Assembly: GCA_029976025.1 (NCBI GenBank)
Contig: JARKNX010000021.1
Span: 19,624 to 83,623 of the forward strand
Direction: 5' to 3'
From: Aggregatilineales bacterium
GTDB taxonomy: Bacteria; Chloroflexota; Anaerolineae; Aggregatilineales; Ch27
Length of the DNA: 64,000 bases
A program made the position numbers and the translations under genes. The notes beneath the pieces are model-generated. The model had not been told where the DNA came from. It worked only from the letters and a program-made list of their open reading frames with translations, and made no database searches. This document shows positions 53,479 through 59,650 of this stretch, piece after piece; the first letter of the stretch is position 1, and the number at the start of each line of letters is the position of its first letter.

Positions 53479-53548
53479 TTGAGGTTGTCCGGGCAGTTGT
53501 TTGTTCGCCGCAGTTATTCGCATCGTGTCAGATGGGATAGGCTCCTCT

Positions 53549-54889
53549 ATGAATCGCTTCGCCAACTTTGCTATCGTCATCAACCGTGTTGTTGTCATCC
53601 TTGTCGTGCTGGCGTTCACCCTGCCCGCCGCGCTGATCCTGGCGCAGGAGGGCGAGATCGCGCTCGTCCCGTTCACCGATCAGGAGATGGGCTTCAGCGG
53701 CGTCGGGCCGGAGGGCTGGATGGTGGCCCAGCCGGGCGTCTACCGCCGCCTGAATAACGAGACGGATCTGACCGCCCTGATCGAGTCTTCGGCGCTGGGC
53801 TTCGCTCTGGAAGATATCACCGCCGGACTGCTGCAGCGGCTGGGCCAGACGGCCCTGCCGGAAGAAGCGACCGTGCTTGAGGCCAACACGCTCACCTGGA
53901 ACATCTACCGCTTCGATGTGCCGCTCCCTACCGGGGGAGCCGTCGCTATCGATCTGGCCCTGGCGGAGAGTCCTTACAGCCCCTTCATCGTCCTGCTGCA
54001 AACGCAGGCTGACGAGCATGACGCCCTGTACGACGCCCTGTTCCTGCCAGTGGTGGAGGCGCTGCAGCCGTTTTCGCTCAACTGGGCGCAGCCGGAGCCG
54101 GTCCCTTTCGCGCCGCTGATGGAGCCGGAGCGGCTTCAGCCAGAGGTGCTGAACACCCGCCCGCACGATGTCACCGCCTACACTCAGGGCTTGCTGCTCT
54201 ACGACGGATCGCTTTATGAGAGCGCCGGCCTGTACGGCGAATCCACCCTGCGCGAGGTGAACCCGGATACCGGCGAGGTGATCCGCAGCGTACCCGTGCC
54301 GGCGGAATACTTCGCCGAAGGGCTGGCCCTGGTGGGCGACCGGCTGATCCAGCTCACCTGGAAGGAGCATGAGGCGCTGGTCTACGACCTGGAGACGTTT
54401 GAGCGGGTGGATACAATCCCCTACGAGGGCGAAGGGTGGGGCCTGTGCTACGATGGCGAGGTCCTGTACATGAGCAACGGCAGCCCGTTCATCACCATTC
54501 GCGACGCGGAGACCTTCGCAGTCATCGATCGCGGCCTGGTGACCGTGGCCGGGCAGCCGGTGGACCAGTTGAATGAGCTGGAGTGTGTCGGCGATTATCT
54601 GTACGCCAACATTTACCAGGCGGATTTCATCGTCAAGATTGACAAGCACAACGGCAATGTCGTCGCCATCATTAACGCGGCTGGCCTGCTCAGCCCGGAA
54701 GAACGGGCCGCGCTGGTGGTCGGGCAGCAGGTGCTCAACGGTATTGTCTACCTGCCGGAGTCGGACACCTTCCTGATCACGGGCAAGCAGTGGCCGACGA
54801 TGTTCGAAGTCCGGTTCGTCCCCATGCCGGAGGCTACACCTGCGCCGGAGGCTACGCCCGTGCCGACGGCAGCGCCTGCCTCAAATTAG
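53549..54889 (+). CDS. Exported glutaminyl-peptide cyclotransferase with extra N-terminal domain
   Basis: PHDVTAYTQGL, LYESAGLYGES, FAEGL, QLTW, GEGWGL, LNELE, VLNGI. Confidence 0.9.
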   Translation: MNRFANFAIVINRVVVILVVLAFTLPAALILAQEGEIALVPFTDQEMGFSGVGPEGWMVAQPGVYRRLNNETDLTALIESSALGFALEDITAGLLQRLGQTALPEEATVLEANTLTWNIYRFDVPLPTGGAVAIDLALAESPYSPFIVLLQTQADEHDALYDALFLPVVEALQPFSLNWAQPEPVPFAPLMEPERLQPEVLNTRPHDVTAYTQGLLLYDGSLYESAGLYGESTLREVNPDTGEVIRSVPVPAEYFAEGLALVGDRLIQLTWKEHEALVYDLETFERVDTIPYEGEGWGLCYDGEVLYMSNGSPFITIRDAETFAVIDRGLVTVAGQPVDQLNELECVGDYLYANIYQADFIVKIDKHNGNVVAIINAAGLLSPEERAALVVGQQVLNGIVYLPESDTFLITGKQWPTMFEVRFVPMPEATPAPEATPVPTAAPASN

Positions 54890-54966: not shown

Positions 54967-55011
54967 TGTGTTGAACATAGGGTGGTCGGGTTCTATAGAA
55001 GGGATCGCGTG

Positions 55012-55848
55012 GTGAAGCGAATTGGACTGCTGCTTGCCGCCGCAGCCGGGGCGATCGGGGCCGGCTTCTTCCTCCTGGATCGCCGCGTGCAGGTCCCGCT
55101 GGAGGGCAAGGTCGTCCTGATCAGCGGGGGGGAGTCCGGCCTGGGCGGGGCTGCCGCGCGCGCCTTCGCCGAGGCGGGCGCGCGCCCGATCCTGGCTGAC
55201 GGCCTGGATGGCGCGGCCTCTGACGCGGAGGCGCTGAGCGCGCTGACGGAGGATGTCCGCCGTCGTCACGGGCGGATCGATGTGCTGGTCAGCGCGACCG
55301 AGACGGCGCTGGGCGGGCTGTTCCAGGACGGCGATCCGGCCCGCCTGCGGGCGATGGTCGAGACCGACCTGATCGGCACGATCCATCTGGTGCGGGCCGT
55401 CGCCCCGATCATGATCGCGCAGGGCAGTGGCCATATCGTGATTGCCGCCGGGCTGGCCGGGCGGCTCCCTGCGCCGGGATACGCCGCCTGGACGGCGGTC
55501 CGGGCCGGGCTGGTCGGGTTCGCTGACGCCTTTCGCCGCGAGGTGGACGATGCCGGCCTGCGCGTCTCGCTCGTCCTGACCGGCGCGGACGGCCTGCCCC
55601 TGCCCGCCGACGGCTTCGCTGCCGCCGATGCGGACACGATAGCGGCGGCGCTGGCGATCCGCGAGGCTGTCTATGCGGGCCGGCGGGAGGTTGTCGCGGG
55701 CGGGCTGTCCTCTCGCGCTCTGGTCCTGCTGAACCGGCTGGCTCCGCCGCTGGCCGACCTGTACTGGCGCTGGCGGCTGACGCCGGAGTTCCTCCACCGG
55801 GCGGCGGAGCGCGCGCGGCAACAGGCGCGCTATACCGCTGAATTTTAA
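55012..55848 (+). CDS. Degenerate SDR-fold protein (probable pseudoenzyme)
   Basis: SGGESGLG and GRIDVLV retained; NNAG replaced by SATE and YxxxK by WTAVR. Confidence 0.75.
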   Translation: MKRIGLLLAAAAGAIGAGFFLLDRRVQVPLEGKVVLISGGESGLGGAAARAFAEAGARPILADGLDGAASDAEALSALTEDVRRRHGRIDVLVSATETALGGLFQDGDPARLRAMVETDLIGTIHLVRAVAPIMIAQGSGHIVIAAGLAGRLPAPGYAAWTAVRAGLVGFADAFRREVDDAGLRVSLVLTGADGLPLPADGFAAADADTIAAALAIREAVYAGRREVVAGGLSSRALVLLNRLAPPLADLYWRWRLTPEFLHRAAERARQQARYTAEF

Positions 55849-55869
55849 GGATTGCGCCGGACGATTATG

Positions 55870-56060
55870 TGTTATACTGTTGGCATCGTCGGGATAGCGA
55901 AAGGAGGTGATCGAGAGTATGTCAGGTCATAAGGGGGTGTCCCCGTAATTCGCCTGCGCATCATCTCCGAGCGCTGCCTTTTACGGGGGCGCTCCCACCC
56001 TGAACGACTGTGAAGCTGCAGTCGGGCGGCTGGAGGTTAACACCCTCCAGCCGTTTTTTT
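55870..56060 (+). ncRNA. Candidate small structured RNA carrying a 9-codon ORF (55919-55948, MSGHKGVSP)
   Basis: TGtTATACT, AAAGGAGGTGATC, ATG..TAA, two hairpins and a terminator. Confidence 0.5.
56026..56060 (+). terminator. Strong intrinsic terminator
   Basis: gcggctggagg/cctccagccgt stem with a run of seven Ts. Confidence 0.85.
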
Positions 56061-56084
56061 ATGCGGGCGGGCCAGCGCCAGCAA

Positions 56085-56110
56085 GGGACAGGGGGCTTAA
56101 GTCTCTTGTC
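56085..56110. repeat. REP-like palindrome (inverted copy of 54941-54964)
   Basis: gggacagggggcttaagtctcttg. Confidence 0.6.
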
Positions 56111-56222
56111 TCCGGTTATCGCGCCCGCTGTTCGCCTTCACCCGCCCCCGTCTTTTTGCATCACCGGCGCGATGCAGTATCATGGCTCCCGGCGCGGCAG
56201 CGTTACACTGTGAGGGAGAGCC

Positions 56223-57134
56223 GTGAAGGGACGAGACAGAATTCTGCTGGGCGCGGTCGGCGGCGCGCTGCTCCTGTGGCTGTGGCGGCGGCGCCAGGCT
56301 CCGCTGGACCTGGCCGATAGCGTCGTCCTCATCACTGGCGCGTCATCCGGCATCGGGCGGGCAGCGGCGCACGCCTTCGCCGCGCAGGGTGCGCGCGTTG
56401 TCCTGGTCGCCCGGCGGGAGGCCGTCCTGCGCGCGGTGCAGGAGGAGCTGGCGATCTACGCCGCGCCCACGCTGGTTGTCCCGGCGGATGTGACGCGCGA
56501 CGCCGATCTGGAGGCGCTGGTCGGGGCGGTGCTGGCGGCGTGGGGGCGGATTGATGTGCTGGTCAATAACGCCGGGCTGTCCTACGGCGGCCCGCTGGAG
56601 GAAATGGACCCGGCCCGCATCCGGGCGCTGGCCGGGGTCAACCTCTACGGCCCGCTGAACCTGACCCGGCTGGTGCTGCCGGTGATGCTGCGCCAGGGCG
56701 GCGGGCATATCGTCAATGTCAGCAGCGTAGCCGGCCTGATCGGGGCGCCGGGCATGGCGGCCTATACGGCTACGCGGCGCGGGCTGGCGCGCTTCAGCGA
56801 TGCGCTGCGGCGGGAAACCGCCGGGACCGGGGTGCATGTCTCCACCGTTTACCCGTCCTGGACGGCCACGCCGATTCTGGGTGAGCTGGATGTGCAGCAG
56901 TTATACGACAGCCGGGTCCTGAACGGCTGGGATGGGATTGACTCGCCGGATATCCCGGCTATGGCTATTGTCGATGCTGTGCGCTCCCGGCGGCGGGTGG
57001 TGATCCTGGGCGGCGGGTGGATGCGCGCCGGCGCGCTGGTGGAGCGCGTCGCGCCGGCTGCGCTCGATCTGTTCTGGCGCGCCGTTGTGGATATCCCCGC
57101 CTATCTGGCCGCGGTGCGCCGCCTGGGGGCCTGA
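56223..57134 (+). CDS. Membrane-anchored SDR oxidoreductase
   Basis: TGASSGIG, DV, NNAG, NVSS, YTATR (Lys replaced by Arg). Confidence 0.9.
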   Translation: MKGRDRILLGAVGGALLLWLWRRRQAPLDLADSVVLITGASSGIGRAAAHAFAAQGARVVLVARREAVLRAVQEELAIYAAPTLVVPADVTRDADLEALVGAVLAAWGRIDVLVNNAGLSYGGPLEEMDPARIRALAGVNLYGPLNLTRLVLPVMLRQGGGHIVNVSSVAGLIGAPGMAAYTATRRGLARFSDALRRETAGTGVHVSTVYPSWTATPILGELDVQQLYDSRVLNGWDGIDSPDIPAMAIVDAVRSRRRVVILGGGWMRAGALVERVAPAALDLFWRAVVDIPAYLAAVRRLGA

Positions 57135-57146
57135 AATCCGGGCGCG

Positions 57147-58427
57147 CTACGAGCCGGGCTCCGGCGTGGCCGTCAGCAGGCCGTCCTCAGAGCCTTCCGG
57201 CGTTTCGGTCGGGACCAGCGTCACCACGACCTGACACTGGGCCAGCGCGTCGCGGATATCCGTCTGGGTCGTCGTCGTCGTGGCCAGCGCCAGCCCTTCC
57301 AGCAGGATTTCCCGCGCCCGCGTGCAGTCCCCGATCACGATGTAGCACGTCCCCCCGTAGTAGTAGGTGAGGGCGTTGGTGGAGCCAGCGGCAATGGCCC
57401 GGTCCAGCGTCCGCGCGCACAGGTTGAACTCCCCGGCGGCCCGCTGCAGGGCGCCGAGGATGCTCAGGCAGGCGATGTTGTTCGGGGCGATGGCGATGCA
57501 CCGCTCCGCCGCTTCGCGGGCCTGATCCTGCTCGCCTACGTAAGTCAGCAGGACGCGCGACAGCGCGGCGTAGGCTTCGGCGTTCTCCGGGTTGCGATCG
57601 AGCACGTCGCGCAGGAGCCGCACGGCGGTGTCATAGTCTCCCTGCCGGATGTACAGATCGGCCAGGTTGAAGACGATGTAGCTCTGCATCGGGGCCAGCT
57701 GGCGGGCGCGCTCGTAGGCCTGCACGGCGGATTCCAGATCGCCGGTATATTCGGCCACATAGCCGTAGTTGCGCTGCACATTGTAGTCCGTCGGGTTCAG
57801 CTCCAGCGCCTGATCGGCGGCTTCCCGGGCTTCTGCCGGCTTGCCCATATCAATATACGCTTCGGCCAGGAAGGACAGCGCCACGGCGTTCTGGGGGTCC
57901 AGCTTCAGCGCCTGATACAGGCTGGGGAGCGCCTGCTCTATGTTCCCCTGCCATTCGTAGACCATCCCCTGAATAGCCCAGGCCAGCGGATCGTAGGGGT
58001 TGGCGTTCACCGCCTGCCCGGCCAGCTCAATCGCTTCGGCGCCGTGCCCCGTCGTCGTCAGGAGATGCGCCAGCCGGAAGTGCACGTCAACATCGTTAGG
58101 CAGGCCCGCCGCCGCCAGCCGGTAGTTGGCGATGGCCTCATCCATCGCGCCGCGCTCGTAGGCGGCGTCGGCGATTTCCAGATAGCTGAACGGGGATTCG
58201 GTTGGCGTGGCGGTCGGGGCGCGCAGCGTGGCGACCTGGCTTTCCGCGCTGGCAATCTGGCGGAACAGGGCGTCTTCCAGCGGCTTGCGGAACATATCCC
58301 GCTGGTCGTAGATGCCGGCCCCGATTACGACCACGATTGGCGTCAGCAGGTACAGCCACCACCAGCGCAGGTTGAACAGCCGCCGCCGCTGGCGGCCGGT
58401 ATATCGTTTGGGCGTCTTGAGATACAT
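57147..58427 (-). CDS. Single-TM TPR protein 3
   Basis: Basic N-tail, TM, PTATP linker, multiple TPRs, C-terminal Cys residues. Confidence 0.85.
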   Translation of the reverse strand: MYLKTPKRYTGRQRRRLFNLRWWWLYLLTPIVVVIGAGIYDQRDMFRKPLEDALFRQIASAESQVATLRAPTATPTESPFSYLEIADAAYERGAMDEAIANYRLAAAGLPNDVDVHFRLAHLLTTTGHGAEAIELAGQAVNANPYDPLAWAIQGMVYEWQGNIEQALPSLYQALKLDPQNAVALSFLAEAYIDMGKPAEAREAADQALELNPTDYNVQRNYGYVAEYTGDLESAVQAYERARQLAPMQSYIVFNLADLYIRQGDYDTAVRLLRDVLDRNPENAEAYAALSRVLLTYVGEQDQAREAAERCIAIAPNNIACLSILGALQRAAGEFNLCARTLDRAIAAGSTNALTYYYGGTCYIVIGDCTRAREILLEGLALATTTTTQTDIRDALAQCQVVVTLVPTETPEGSEDGLLTATPEPGS

Positions 58428-58432
58428 AGCCC

Positions 58433-59650
58433 TCAATTATCTCCCAGGTCCGCCCCATCTGTCGAACCGTCCGACTCCGCCGGGATCAGCTCTGGCGGCG
58501 GCACGACCTGGCACATGCGCAGCCCTTCGCGAATGAAGCCGAGGATGCGGTCGGACTGGGTGCGCTCCATGGATTCTTCCAGCAGCGGGACAGCCAGATC
58601 GCAGCGGCGCAGGTACACATAGGCCAGCCCGCGCTGGTAGTAGCAGTAGATGCTGTCGAATTCCAGCGCCACGCACTGCTCGTAGGCGTCAATTGAGTCC
58701 TGGAACTTGCTCTCAGCGTAGTAGACCTGTCCGATCTGCTGCCAGGCGGCGGCGTAAGTCGGGTCGATATCCAGCGCCCGCCGGCAGTAGTCTTCGGCGC
58801 GGGCGTCTTCGCGCAGGTAGAGATAGGTCTGGCACAGCCGGAGCAGGGCGCGGACGTTGGTCGGGCGGATAGCCAGCGCCCGCTCGTAGGCCGCAATAGC
58901 CGCCGGCACGTTCTCCAGCGCCCGATATTTTTCCGCCGCCTCAAAGTACAGAAAGTCCAGCGTCGGGTGGAGGGCGATAGCGGCTTCGAGGGCCCGGATA
59001 GCGCCCTCGCGGTCGCCAAGCCAGGTCAGCGCGTAGGCGTAGGCGCGGAAGCTGTCCATGCTGTCCGGGTCGAGTGTGACGGCCCGCTCGCCCATCTGAG
59101 CGGCCTGCTGCCAGCGCCCGATGTCGGCATAGGCCCAGGCCAGGTAAGCGTAGGTCGGCGCGTAATCGGGGTGACGCTCCAGCGTGGTCCGGCCGAGCGC
59201 GATCGCCTCGTCCACGCGGTCGATCTGGTAGAGGCCATAAACCTTGAGCGCCAGGCCGCGCGGGTCGCCGGGCGCCAGCGCGATCATGTGCTCGGCGGCA
59301 TCCAGCGCCTCGGCCCCCCGATTCAACAGGAGCAGCGTGTGGGCGTATTCGTTGAGGATATCGAGGGAGTCCGGCTCCATGCGCAGCGCCTCAGCATACA
59401 GGCTGGCGGCGCTTTCCAGATCGCCGGCCACATAAGCCGCGTACCCTTCCTGCGCGACAGCCGAGGCGGGGGGCGTCGGCGTCGGCGGCTCCCCCAGGAA
59501 GCTCACTGCCGCCGTCTGCAAGCGGTCGAACTGCCAGATGGCAAGGATGATGATCAGCGCCCCGGCCGCCAGGCCGATCAGCGGGCCGGACGATCGCCGC
59601 GGATACCCGCCGCCGAAGCGCAGCCGGGATCGATCACGCCGGATATACAT
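58433..59650 (-). CDS. Single-TM TPR protein 2
   Basis: Same architecture; PDYAPTYAYLA, LDFLYFE. Confidence 0.87.
   Translation of the reverse strand: MYIRRDRSRLRFGGGYPRRSSGPLIGLAAGALIIILAIWQFDRLQTAAVSFLGEPPTPTPPASAVAQEGYAAYVAGDLESAASLYAEALRMEPDSLDILNEYAHTLLLLNRGAEALDAAEHMIALAPGDPRGLALKVYGLYQIDRVDEAIALGRTTLERHPDYAPTYAYLAWAYADIGRWQQAAQMGERAVTLDPDSMDSFRAYAYALTWLGDREGAIRALEAAIALHPTLDFLYFEAAEKYRALENVPAAIAAYERALAIRPTNVRALLRLCQTYLYLREDARAEDYCRRALDIDPTYAAAWQQIGQVYYAESKFQDSIDAYEQCVALEFDSIYCYYQRGLAYVYLRRCDLAVPLLEESMERTQSDRILGFIREGLRMCQVVPPPELIPAESDGSTDGADLGDN

Follow-up and report, generated by a model that had tools for sequence, protein, structure and literature searches.

A putative small-RNA gene between two dehydrogenase genes

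We analyzed a 64,000-nt stretch of DNA from an Aggregatilineales bacterium (contig JARKNX010000021.1), referred to below as the window; all coordinates are positions in this window, and all parts of the RNA described here lie on its + strand. Two co-directional open reading frames (ORFs) of the window, both assigned to the short-chain dehydrogenase (SDR) family, are separated by a gap of 374 bp, and a reading of the sequence places within this gap a whole small unit composed of promoter-like elements, a long Shine-Dalgarno (SD) stretch, a frame of nine codons, several predicted helices and an intrinsic terminator (Table 1). A preliminary description of this DNA had proposed such a unit between two SDR genes, with an extended -10 element, a nine-codon ORF starting six nt after the SD stretch and a terminator, and all of these elements were recovered at the positions originally given for them.

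The -35-like hexamer and the extended -10 element on one side and the terminator on the other delimit a putative gene spanning 55852-56060. Transcription would start near 55884-55886 and yield an RNA of ~175 nt, with the SD stretch ~15 nt from its 5' end. The promoter at 55852-55878 is absent from the output of a consensus promoter scan, because its -35-like hexamer matches only three of the six consensus positions and the spacer measures 15; the promoter assignment therefore leans on the extended -10 element and on its conservation. The terminator-like site at 56024-56056, with its T run, is the only one in the region 55000-57200 (shuffle mean 0.8).

Table 1. Coordinates of the small unit, its predicted structural elements and the flanking genes in the window.
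Feature	Position	Strand or direction	Basis and remarks
Upstream SDR gene	54982-55848	same direction as small unit	PF00106
-35-like hexamer TTGCGC	55852-55857	+	sequence reading; CTTGCR kept here in family alignment
Extended -10, TGtTATACT	55870-55878	+	TGTGYTAYRCT in 59 of 59 aligned copies
SD stretch GAAAGGAGGTGATC	55899-55912	+	14-nt perfect complement of 16S 3' tail
Mini-ORF, ATG to TAA, 9 codons (MSGHKGVSP, stop)	55919-55948	+	frame of 6-17 codons in family
P1ext 5' arm, UCAGG	55922-55926	+	pairs with 55999-56003; minimum free energy (MFE) fold; double changes in 4 of 4 pairs, 86.6% of cells paired
P2 5' arm, segment A (codons 5-9 and stop)	55933-55948	+	pairs with 55981-55996; 16-bp helix; 8 of 9 core pairs changed on both sides
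Anti-SD-like motif AUCAUCUCC	55960-55968	+	can pair with GGAGGUGAU at 55903-55911
Segment B, GAGCGC, P2alt 5' arm	55969-55974	+	pairs with 55989-55994
Segment C, P2 3' arm	55981-55996	+	part 55989-55994 also used by P2alt
P1ext 3' arm, CCUGA	55999-56003	+	MFE fold and covariation
P3 hairpin, CGACUGU / GCAGUCG	56005-56024 (56005-56011 with 56018-56024)	+	double changes in 5 of 6 pairs
Intrinsic terminator	56025-56060	+	12-bp stem 56025-56036 / 56044-56055; T run 56054-56060
Downstream SDR gene	56223-57134	same direction as small unit	PF00106

The SD stretch complements the entire free tail of 16S rRNA

The preliminary description had noted a 13-nt perfect complement of the conserved 16S 3' end at 55900-55912 (AAAGGAGGTGATC). 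Comparison with the 16S gene of the same genome (contig C26, 1488 bits), which terminates in ...GGATCACCTCCTTTCT, confirmed this match, and the addition of G55899 extends it to 14 nt: the SD string is the exact complement of the gene's end and covers the entire free 3' tail. In the 3,999,610 bases of the genome, three copies of the 13-mer were counted against an expectation of 0.06, and the two other copies are the antisense of the 16S end, leaving the copy in the small RNA as the sole non-rRNA one. The string AAGGAGGTG has 21 occurrences in the genome, only three of which precede long ORFs in a simple scan. Judged by these counts, the SD of the small RNA is the strongest predicted ribosome-binding site in the genome, and it serves a frame of nine codons. 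Contigs C26 and C36 carry an identical 16S 3' end and spacer, and the 16S gene is cut off by the end of C36; a single rRNA operon split in the assembly, or else two copies of the operon, would seem to account for this.

The unit belongs to a family found mainly in one order of Anaerolineae

A DNA search of 40 relatives returned 10 matches, with E-values from 1e-23 to 8.7e-5, and an exact-motif scan of species-representative genomes yielded 48 loci, all in entries titled Chloroflexota, Anaerolineae, Aggregatilineales or Phototrophicaceae, nine of which repeat the first ten relatives. A covariance model (R1) matched 45 of the 151 genomes of the order (~30%), with one convincing copy in each. By family, the matches are distributed over 6 of 9 genomes in f1, 4 of 4 in f5, 29 of 36 in f6, 3 of 19 in f8, 1 of 21 in f7, 1 of 24 in f4 (a 31-nt fragment) and 0 of 36 in f2, and the element is single-copy in the genome from which the window derives. 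A broader model (R2) added two weak matches elsewhere in the class and seven weak matches (27-33 bits) among 150 other Chloroflexota; the latter seven consist of an SD, a start codon, a frame of 14-22 codons and a terminator, and their homology is uncertain. In total, 83 sources match the model, representing 80 distinct sequences that come almost exclusively from a single order of Anaerolineae. A search for homologs had been proposed in the preliminary description, and so many were found that a lack of homologs does not count against the unit. Nor does the unit resemble the decayed start of a former gene, which had also been considered, since the whole of it, including the terminator, is conserved.

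In the 44 distinct members that lay outside our own pattern selection, no stretch of the RNA is better conserved than the SD, whose complementarity to 16S rRNA ranges from 8 to 18 nt across the family, 13 being the commonest value. The predicted SD:16S duplex has a median energy of -22.5 kcal/mol (-26.5 in the window), and the predicted cost of opening has a median of 5.0 kcal/mol for the SD and of 12.7 kcal/mol for the region from the SD to +15 (16.7 in the window). On these predicted values, capture by a ribosome is plausible even though the RNA is folded.

Units of a related appearance were observed beyond the order. Six loci in other Chloroflexota classes (L128, L129, L130, L131, L132 and L133) present the SD TAAAGGAGGTGATGC, an ATG, a frame of 14-22 codons (e.g. 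MSDSSHCSITGGLL) and a terminator, and part of their SD is complementary to an in-frame GCATCAC; these units may constitute a sister family of "super-SD" small RNAs. A locus from another order of the same class (L125) presents an 11-bp perfect complement between the SD and an internal anti-SD-like motif (AGAGGUGAUGC with GCAUCACCUCU), which is crossed by its 17-codon frame.

A short frame is retained while its peptide drifts

Among the 78 distinct members that could be scored, frame 0 spans 6-17 codons in 76 (nine codons in 46, ten in 19, 11 in two, 12 in five, six in three and 17 in one), and the remaining two read 12 codons from a GTG. The other two frames fall within 6-17 codons in only 12 and 21 of the 78. 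The start codon is ATG in 70 members and GTG in six, and lies 5-11 nt from the SD. Start codon, stop codon and short frame are retained in all members, including lineages with insertions or deletions: where the intervals flanking the G-run of the P2 arm have shifted by +3, by +1 and +2, or by +3 and +3, the stop remains at the end of that arm.

The encoded peptides, on the other hand, drift. Members encode MSGSKGATL, MLYGLMGCTR, MKKTMVEVSP, VSDQGTVEARLR or MAVWWG, the peptides of distant members are unrelated to one another, and the residues common within clades trace back to the AGG and GGGGG motifs of helices P1ext and P2. Codon-position entropies are flat (0.67/0.83/0.63), with the third position no more variable than the first two, and 23% of the single-base codon differences are synonymous, a share that we assume, with no computed control behind the figure, to be near the value for random substitution. 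Selection at the protein level is thus not apparent from the codon positions, and the peptide does not seem to be what is selected.

Compensatory changes support a structured RNA with two predicted states

Single-sequence folding of the window RNA gave an MFE of -85.4 kcal/mol (z = -5.7). On a model-fitted alignment of the 80 distinct sequences (A5), standard pairs occupy 94.0% of cells, compared to 40-47% when the partners are slid, and changes on both sides are observed in 33 of 37 pairs; none of 500 shuffles reached the observed values. The same helices were recovered by single-sequence folds, independently of the fitted alignment. Double changes affect all 13 pairs scored in the terminator stem, in which 98.7% of cells are paired, and the P3 hairpin is missing from some divergent members. 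Compensatory changes in the aligned sequences thus support four helices and one alternative helix. The preliminary description had proposed setting covariation against codon conservation, and in this comparison compensatory changes were found in the helices, and a signal of protein-level selection was not found at the codon positions.

The alternative helix, P2alt, bears on the two stems reported in the preliminary description, at 55969-55994 and 56005-56024. Both are possible hairpins, but the first corresponds to P2alt, whereas the best fold pairs 55981-55996 with 55933-55948 to form P2. On an unfitted MAFFT alignment (A2), 82% of the P2alt cells pair, compared to 30-63% when slid, and three of its five pairs have changed on both sides; across clades the helix takes the forms GGGTT:AACCC, GAGCG:CGCTC and GGGTG:CACCC, which amount to few independent events.

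A further candidate helix joins the SD to the internal anti-SD-like motif, hereafter the mimic. RNAalifold kept this helix (GGAGGUG:CACCUCU) in 46-50 of 50 sequences, and the duplex reaches -9 kcal/mol or lower in 77 of 80 members, with a median of -11.7 kcal/mol against a shuffled mean of -9.3, values that we regard as suggestive only. The MFE structure is the P2 form in 50 of the 80 members, and a form combining the SD:mimic helix with P2alt in the other 30. When a ribosome-footprint constraint was imposed, segment C re-paired with segment B in 49 of 50 cases. In these models, the 3' half of the ORF, the CACCUC motif and the two downstream segments are predicted to make up a two-state fold with near-isoenergetic conformers. 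Inspection by eye revealed neither an antiterminator joining the ORF or segment C to the terminator arms nor a conserved partner for the 5' CAUCGUYGG that was consistent across clades.

Two structural details were also observed. Seven loci of one sub-clade (L034, L051, L061, L066, L068, L072 and L073) carry an insertion of ~15-20 nt inside the P2 loop, which folds into an additional hairpin and duplicates a portion of the P2 3' arm (GUGAAC), indicating that the interior of P2 tolerates insertions. The terminator stem of the window is itself an SD/anti-SD-like duplex (CUGGAGG with CCUCCAG), and its apical part, RGG-YUAAYNC-CCY, shows moderate conservation that extends to divergent members, something seldom seen in a terminator loop.

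Neighboring genes vary across the family

In the family to which the window belongs, an SDR gene lies downstream of the element in five loci, including the present one, upstream in one (L009) and is absent in one (L012). In ~28 of 50 loci, the element lies instead between a divergent DEDDh exonuclease gene and a convergent pair encoding a GNAT and an HtrA-like protease, with both neighbors on the opposite strand, an arrangement also encountered in divergent members of that family. Across the clades examined, no gene downstream of the element and in its orientation was conserved; together with the variability of the neighbors, this makes a role as cis-acting leader unlikely. On the evidence of these sequences, the small unit is best described as an independent gene rather than a leader.

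In one family, the convergent GNAT (PF13302) and HtrA-like protease genes consistently follow the element (L031, L032, L067, L092, L099, L103 and L104), and the divergent DEDDh exonuclease gene precedes it in the larger clade (L031, L032). NCBIfam models named these large-clade neighbors only at scores far below threshold (RimJ/RimL-like GNAT, DnaQ-like exonuclease), and we draw no functional link from them. In the window, the two SDR paralogs show roughly 31-42% identity to each other's orthologs, and the Pfam match of the upstream one begins only at residue 79 of 288, its N-terminal nucleotide-binding part being divergent. A promoter-like site (56155-56183) lies ahead of the downstream SDR gene. 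Farther out, the region 53501-54889 encodes a glutamine cyclotransferase (PF05096), and tandem TPR-repeat proteins are encoded on the - strand at 57147-58436 (identified by Pfam scan) and 58433-59650 (judged from the ORF translation).

Known RNA families do not account for the unit

The preliminary description had recognized no named family in the unit, and the searches agree. An Rfam scan of 55500-56500 (E ≤ 10) returned only a sub-threshold match to CC2171 (RF01867; 16.6 bits, E 0.52, gathering threshold 75), and a scan of 16 relatives (E ≤ 1) returned only sub-threshold CC2171 matches and one tRNA in a flank. The best scores of relatives against CC2171 were 31.1, 27.4 and 24.6 bits, and membership in that family was rejected on this basis. 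A second CC2171-like match in the genome (contig C162, 16.4 bits) falls inside an open protein frame and was attributed to chance. Ms_IGR-5 (RF02471, threshold 45 bits) matched nothing in a search of the entire genome at E ≤ 10 and was likewise missing from the output of the Rfam scans. A divergent 6S RNA (RF00013) was rejected, because the 6S RNA of the genome lies on contig C52 (61.6 bits) and no 6S match was found in 55500-56500; ARAGORN reported no tRNA or tmRNA gene in the window.

Three functional classes were likewise set aside: a riboswitch, because P2 varies in its interior and has insertions there; a type I toxin, because the frame is too short and not hydrophobic; and a minigene of the lambda bar type, which would act through peptidyl-tRNA drop-off, because the last sense codon is not conserved and the frame is too long, bar-type frames having two or three codons. 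The literature searched, whose coverage was incomplete, contained no published description of this RNA family.

A ribosome-gated riboregulator as the favored interpretation

Taken together, these data point to a new RNA family of unusual design in the Chloroflexota and partly support the interpretation given in the preliminary description. We consider it on balance probable that 55852-56060 constitutes a gene in its own right whose product, a structured small RNA of ~175 nt, doubles as a mini-mRNA in which selection acts on ribosome capture, very short translation and fold, and not on the peptide; that is, a ribosome-gated riboregulator. Such an RNA probably works by engaging ribosomes and not by making protein. 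Among the options raised in the preliminary description, a ribosome-binding or ribosome-protected regulatory RNA is accordingly the one we favor, whereas a micropeptide is disfavored by the drift of the peptides, the flat entropies and the low synonymous share. The decoy option stands in part: ribosome engagement is retained in our interpretation, and a pure untranslated decoy is not, given that start, stop and short frame are kept in all members.

The computed basis of this proposal is the combination of a promoter-like site and terminator of its own, an SD complementary to the 16S tail, an AUG at canonical spacing, a nine-codon frame that runs into P2, and the two predicted conformers, in a single-copy unit with changing neighbors. 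The 30S subunit would bind the SD, the duplex energy of -26.5 kcal/mol being set against an opening cost of ~17, and would initiate at the AUG. Translation of the nine codons would then melt P1ext and P2, and segment C would re-pair with segment B. After termination, the tethered ribosome might re-initiate, leading to reiterative translation, or the mimic might capture the SD and close the RNA. Occupancy of the 5' end by ribosomes could offer the RNA protection against RNase J, a 5'-to-3' exonuclease encoded in the genome (551 bits against a cut-off of 400). The abundance and conformation of the RNA would in this way report ribosome availability, and the output could be target mRNAs, proteins or the ribosome pool. 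By analogy, published precedents lend each step credibility: in the passages cited, the ribosome-bound mccA mini-mRNA is reported to be exceptionally stable (PMC4231749), ORFs of 2-8 codons to be translated reiteratively, and those of up to 15 codons less so (PMC6495379), and 30S binding at a STAB-SD to block RNase J1 (PMC4113751).

Several points weigh against this proposal. Transcription, 30S binding and translation are all inferred, and "riboregulator" is a placeholder name. Alignment A5 was fitted to the model structure and is biased towards it, and many members are close kin, so that independent events are fewer than the sequence counts suggest. Conservation of the stop could be due in part to the RNA itself, given that TAA, TAG and TGA are all able to pair with the UUA opposite them in P2. 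Regarding the mimic, CACCTC is present in 53 of the 80 distinct members and the motif is missing in one clade (L100, L102 and L105); its pairing with the SD is not accompanied by covariation and is only ~1.5 standard deviations more favorable than that of shuffled C/U-rich sequence. Finally, very long SDs are said to slow ribosome escape, which would fit a trap as well as a translated message.

A first alternative is that the RNA is an untranslated binder of the anti-SD region, acting either as a decoy that masks the 16S tail of the 30S subunit or, closed into an SD:anti-SD mimic, as a ligand of a platform protein such as bS21, with AUG and frame being incidental or serving only for ribosome release. 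We regard this alternative as unlikely. It would explain why the best-conserved element is an SD spanning the entire free 16S tail, and it agrees with the occurrence of the internal anti-SD-like motif in most members and with the frequent pairing of the SD in nested ensembles (median unpaired probability 0.31). The P6 stem of OLE RNA, moreover, is reported as a mimic of the SD:anti-SD duplex bound by bS21 (PMC12054373), and bS21 genes are found here and in 146 of the 151 genomes of the order. That near-universality renders the phylogenetic profile of bS21 uninformative: the RNA is found in ~30% of genomes, and there is no co-occurrence signal. The SD:mimic duplex does not covary, and a start 5-11 nt from the SD followed by a stop 6-17 codons on, kept even in indel lineages, would be needless for a pure decoy, which is less likely than a translated mini-mRNA. 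A functional nine-residue peptide (a signal, cofactor precursor or regulator), with RNA structure merely tuning its expression, we consider improbable. The strong SD, the ATG and the retained frame are what such a peptide would call for, and the two largest clades share the loose pattern M-x-G-x-K-G-[AV]-x-[LP], but the shared residues stem from RNA motifs (AGG and GGGGG) that are invariant and build P1ext and P2, the third codon position (0.63, against 0.67 and 0.83) and the synonymous fraction (0.23) do not indicate coding constraint, distant members encode unrelated peptides of 6-17 residues, and no conserved neighboring processing or receptor gene was found across the clades examined.

The remaining explanations are less probable still. 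A role in cis as leader or attenuator of the SDR gene that follows, with the mini-ORF as leader peptide, is very unlikely: a co-directional SDR gene follows here and in four other loci of the window's family, and the frame and alternative helices are leader-like, but the SDR gene is upstream or absent elsewhere, both neighbors lie on the opposite strand in over half of the 50 loci, the alternative helices exclude the terminator with no antiterminator evident, and 160 nt with a promoter-like site separate the terminator from the SDR start. A precursor minigene of a peptide-nucleotide antibiotic, akin to MccA, is more improbable yet. It would share a very short frame conserved in length and not in sequence, a strong SD and a terminator after the frame, as reported for mccA (PMC4231749; PMC6495379), and a RimJ/RimL-type GNAT lies nearby in one clade. 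However, the peptide here ends in Pro, and those of most members end in Leu or Pro, with Asn last in only 5 of 78; no MccB-like (E1/ThiF) gene is present among the flanking ORFs of the window and of the representative loci L031 and L032 (which encode SDR, glutamine cyclotransferase, TPR, DEDDh exonuclease, GNAT and HtrA-like proteins); and the GNAT matches fall far below the cut-offs of named families. A chance arrangement or decayed gene start, to which only the shortness of the frame lends anything, is refuted by 80 distinct copies with compensatory changes, each with a terminator, and by the uniqueness of the 13-mer outside rRNA in the genome.

Returning to ribosome engagement, a bolder version of it, which we hold to be rather unlikely, would cast the RNA as a ribosome-parking or anti-SD-masking device that holds 30S or 70S particles, or that in its closed form holds a platform protein such as bS21, and thereby sets the number of ribosomes competent for SD-led initiation; the hold would come from pairing along the whole 16S tail and from a frame so short that the ribosome remains tethered. 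The mimic would then be an autoinhibitory latch and the exchange of P2 and P2alt a reset, and the family would form, with CC2171, a recurrent "super-SD" class of small RNAs acting on the ribosome rather than on mRNAs.

The usual view of small RNAs is that they target mRNAs or proteins; here the best-conserved element complements the tail with which the ribosome docks mRNA. If ribosome engagement is its mode of action, the family would offer a compact natural system, in an understudied phylum, for the study of how ribosome residence is governed by very strong SDs, very short frames and internal anti-SD mimics, of how these features control RNA stability against RNase J, and of whether they influence the pool of initiation-competent ribosomes; it would also provide a concrete hypothesis for CC2171, an orphan Rfam family of similar design. 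Even under an ordinary reading, the 80 distinct sequences and model R2 define a new RNA family for the Chloroflexota, in which few regulatory RNAs have been described.

Comparison with known systems

In the leader-peptide attenuators of trp, erm and cat, ribosome occupancy of a short frame chooses between alternative helices, much as A:C (P2) and B:C (P2alt) would compete here. The family differs from them in that no co-directional downstream gene is conserved and the terminator stem is separate from both P2 and P2alt, so that any action would be in trans. Dual-function small RNAs such as RNAIII, SgrS and SR1 also carry a short frame; to our knowledge, those described encode conserved peptides of 26 or more residues, unlike the members of this family.

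A 5'-proximal SD that pairs with the 16S 3' end is reportedly also found in the hbs-type 5' stabilizer of Bacillus, which is grouped with STAB-SD. In STAB-SD itself such pairing is described (PMC4113751), comparable to the 14-nt complement near the inferred start of the small RNA. As presented in the cited passages, however, STAB-SD does not drive translation initiation and stabilizes a long downstream mRNA, whereas here an ATG stands at canonical spacing and the RNA ends ~110 nt past the stop, at 56060. OLE RNA, a non-coding RNA, likewise has SD-like and anti-SD-like strands able to pair, in its P6 stem (PMC12054373); it measures ~600 nt, belongs to the Bacillota and has another architecture, with no mini-ORF in the passages cited.

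With mccA, the family shares the strong SD, the frame conserved in length and not in sequence, and an intrinsic terminator just downstream, features taken from the portions cited (PMC4231749; PMC6495379). It lacks the C-terminal Asn, the mccB neighbor (in the representative loci) and the downstream operon, has nine codons as its commonest length instead of seven, and adds an internal anti-SD mimic and a covarying two-state fold. Membership in the MccA, STAB-SD or attenuator classes fails in each case on at least one defining feature.

The closest likeness is to CC2171 of the Alphaproteobacteria, the only Rfam family touched by any member. Its consensus, comparable in length at 159 positions, opens with the same 16S complement, GAAAGGAGGUGAUCCA, followed by GUG, and ends in a terminator hairpin. 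It comes from another phylum, its middle remains unaligned, and the SD string and a generic terminator account for the match. The excerpt cited reports its expression by Northern blot, the inducing condition and function being given as unknown (bioRxiv 10.1101/2022.01.24.477521). The 5' 16S complement, start codon and terminator of CC2171 are all encountered in the present family, a resemblance in design that does not amount to proof of common descent.

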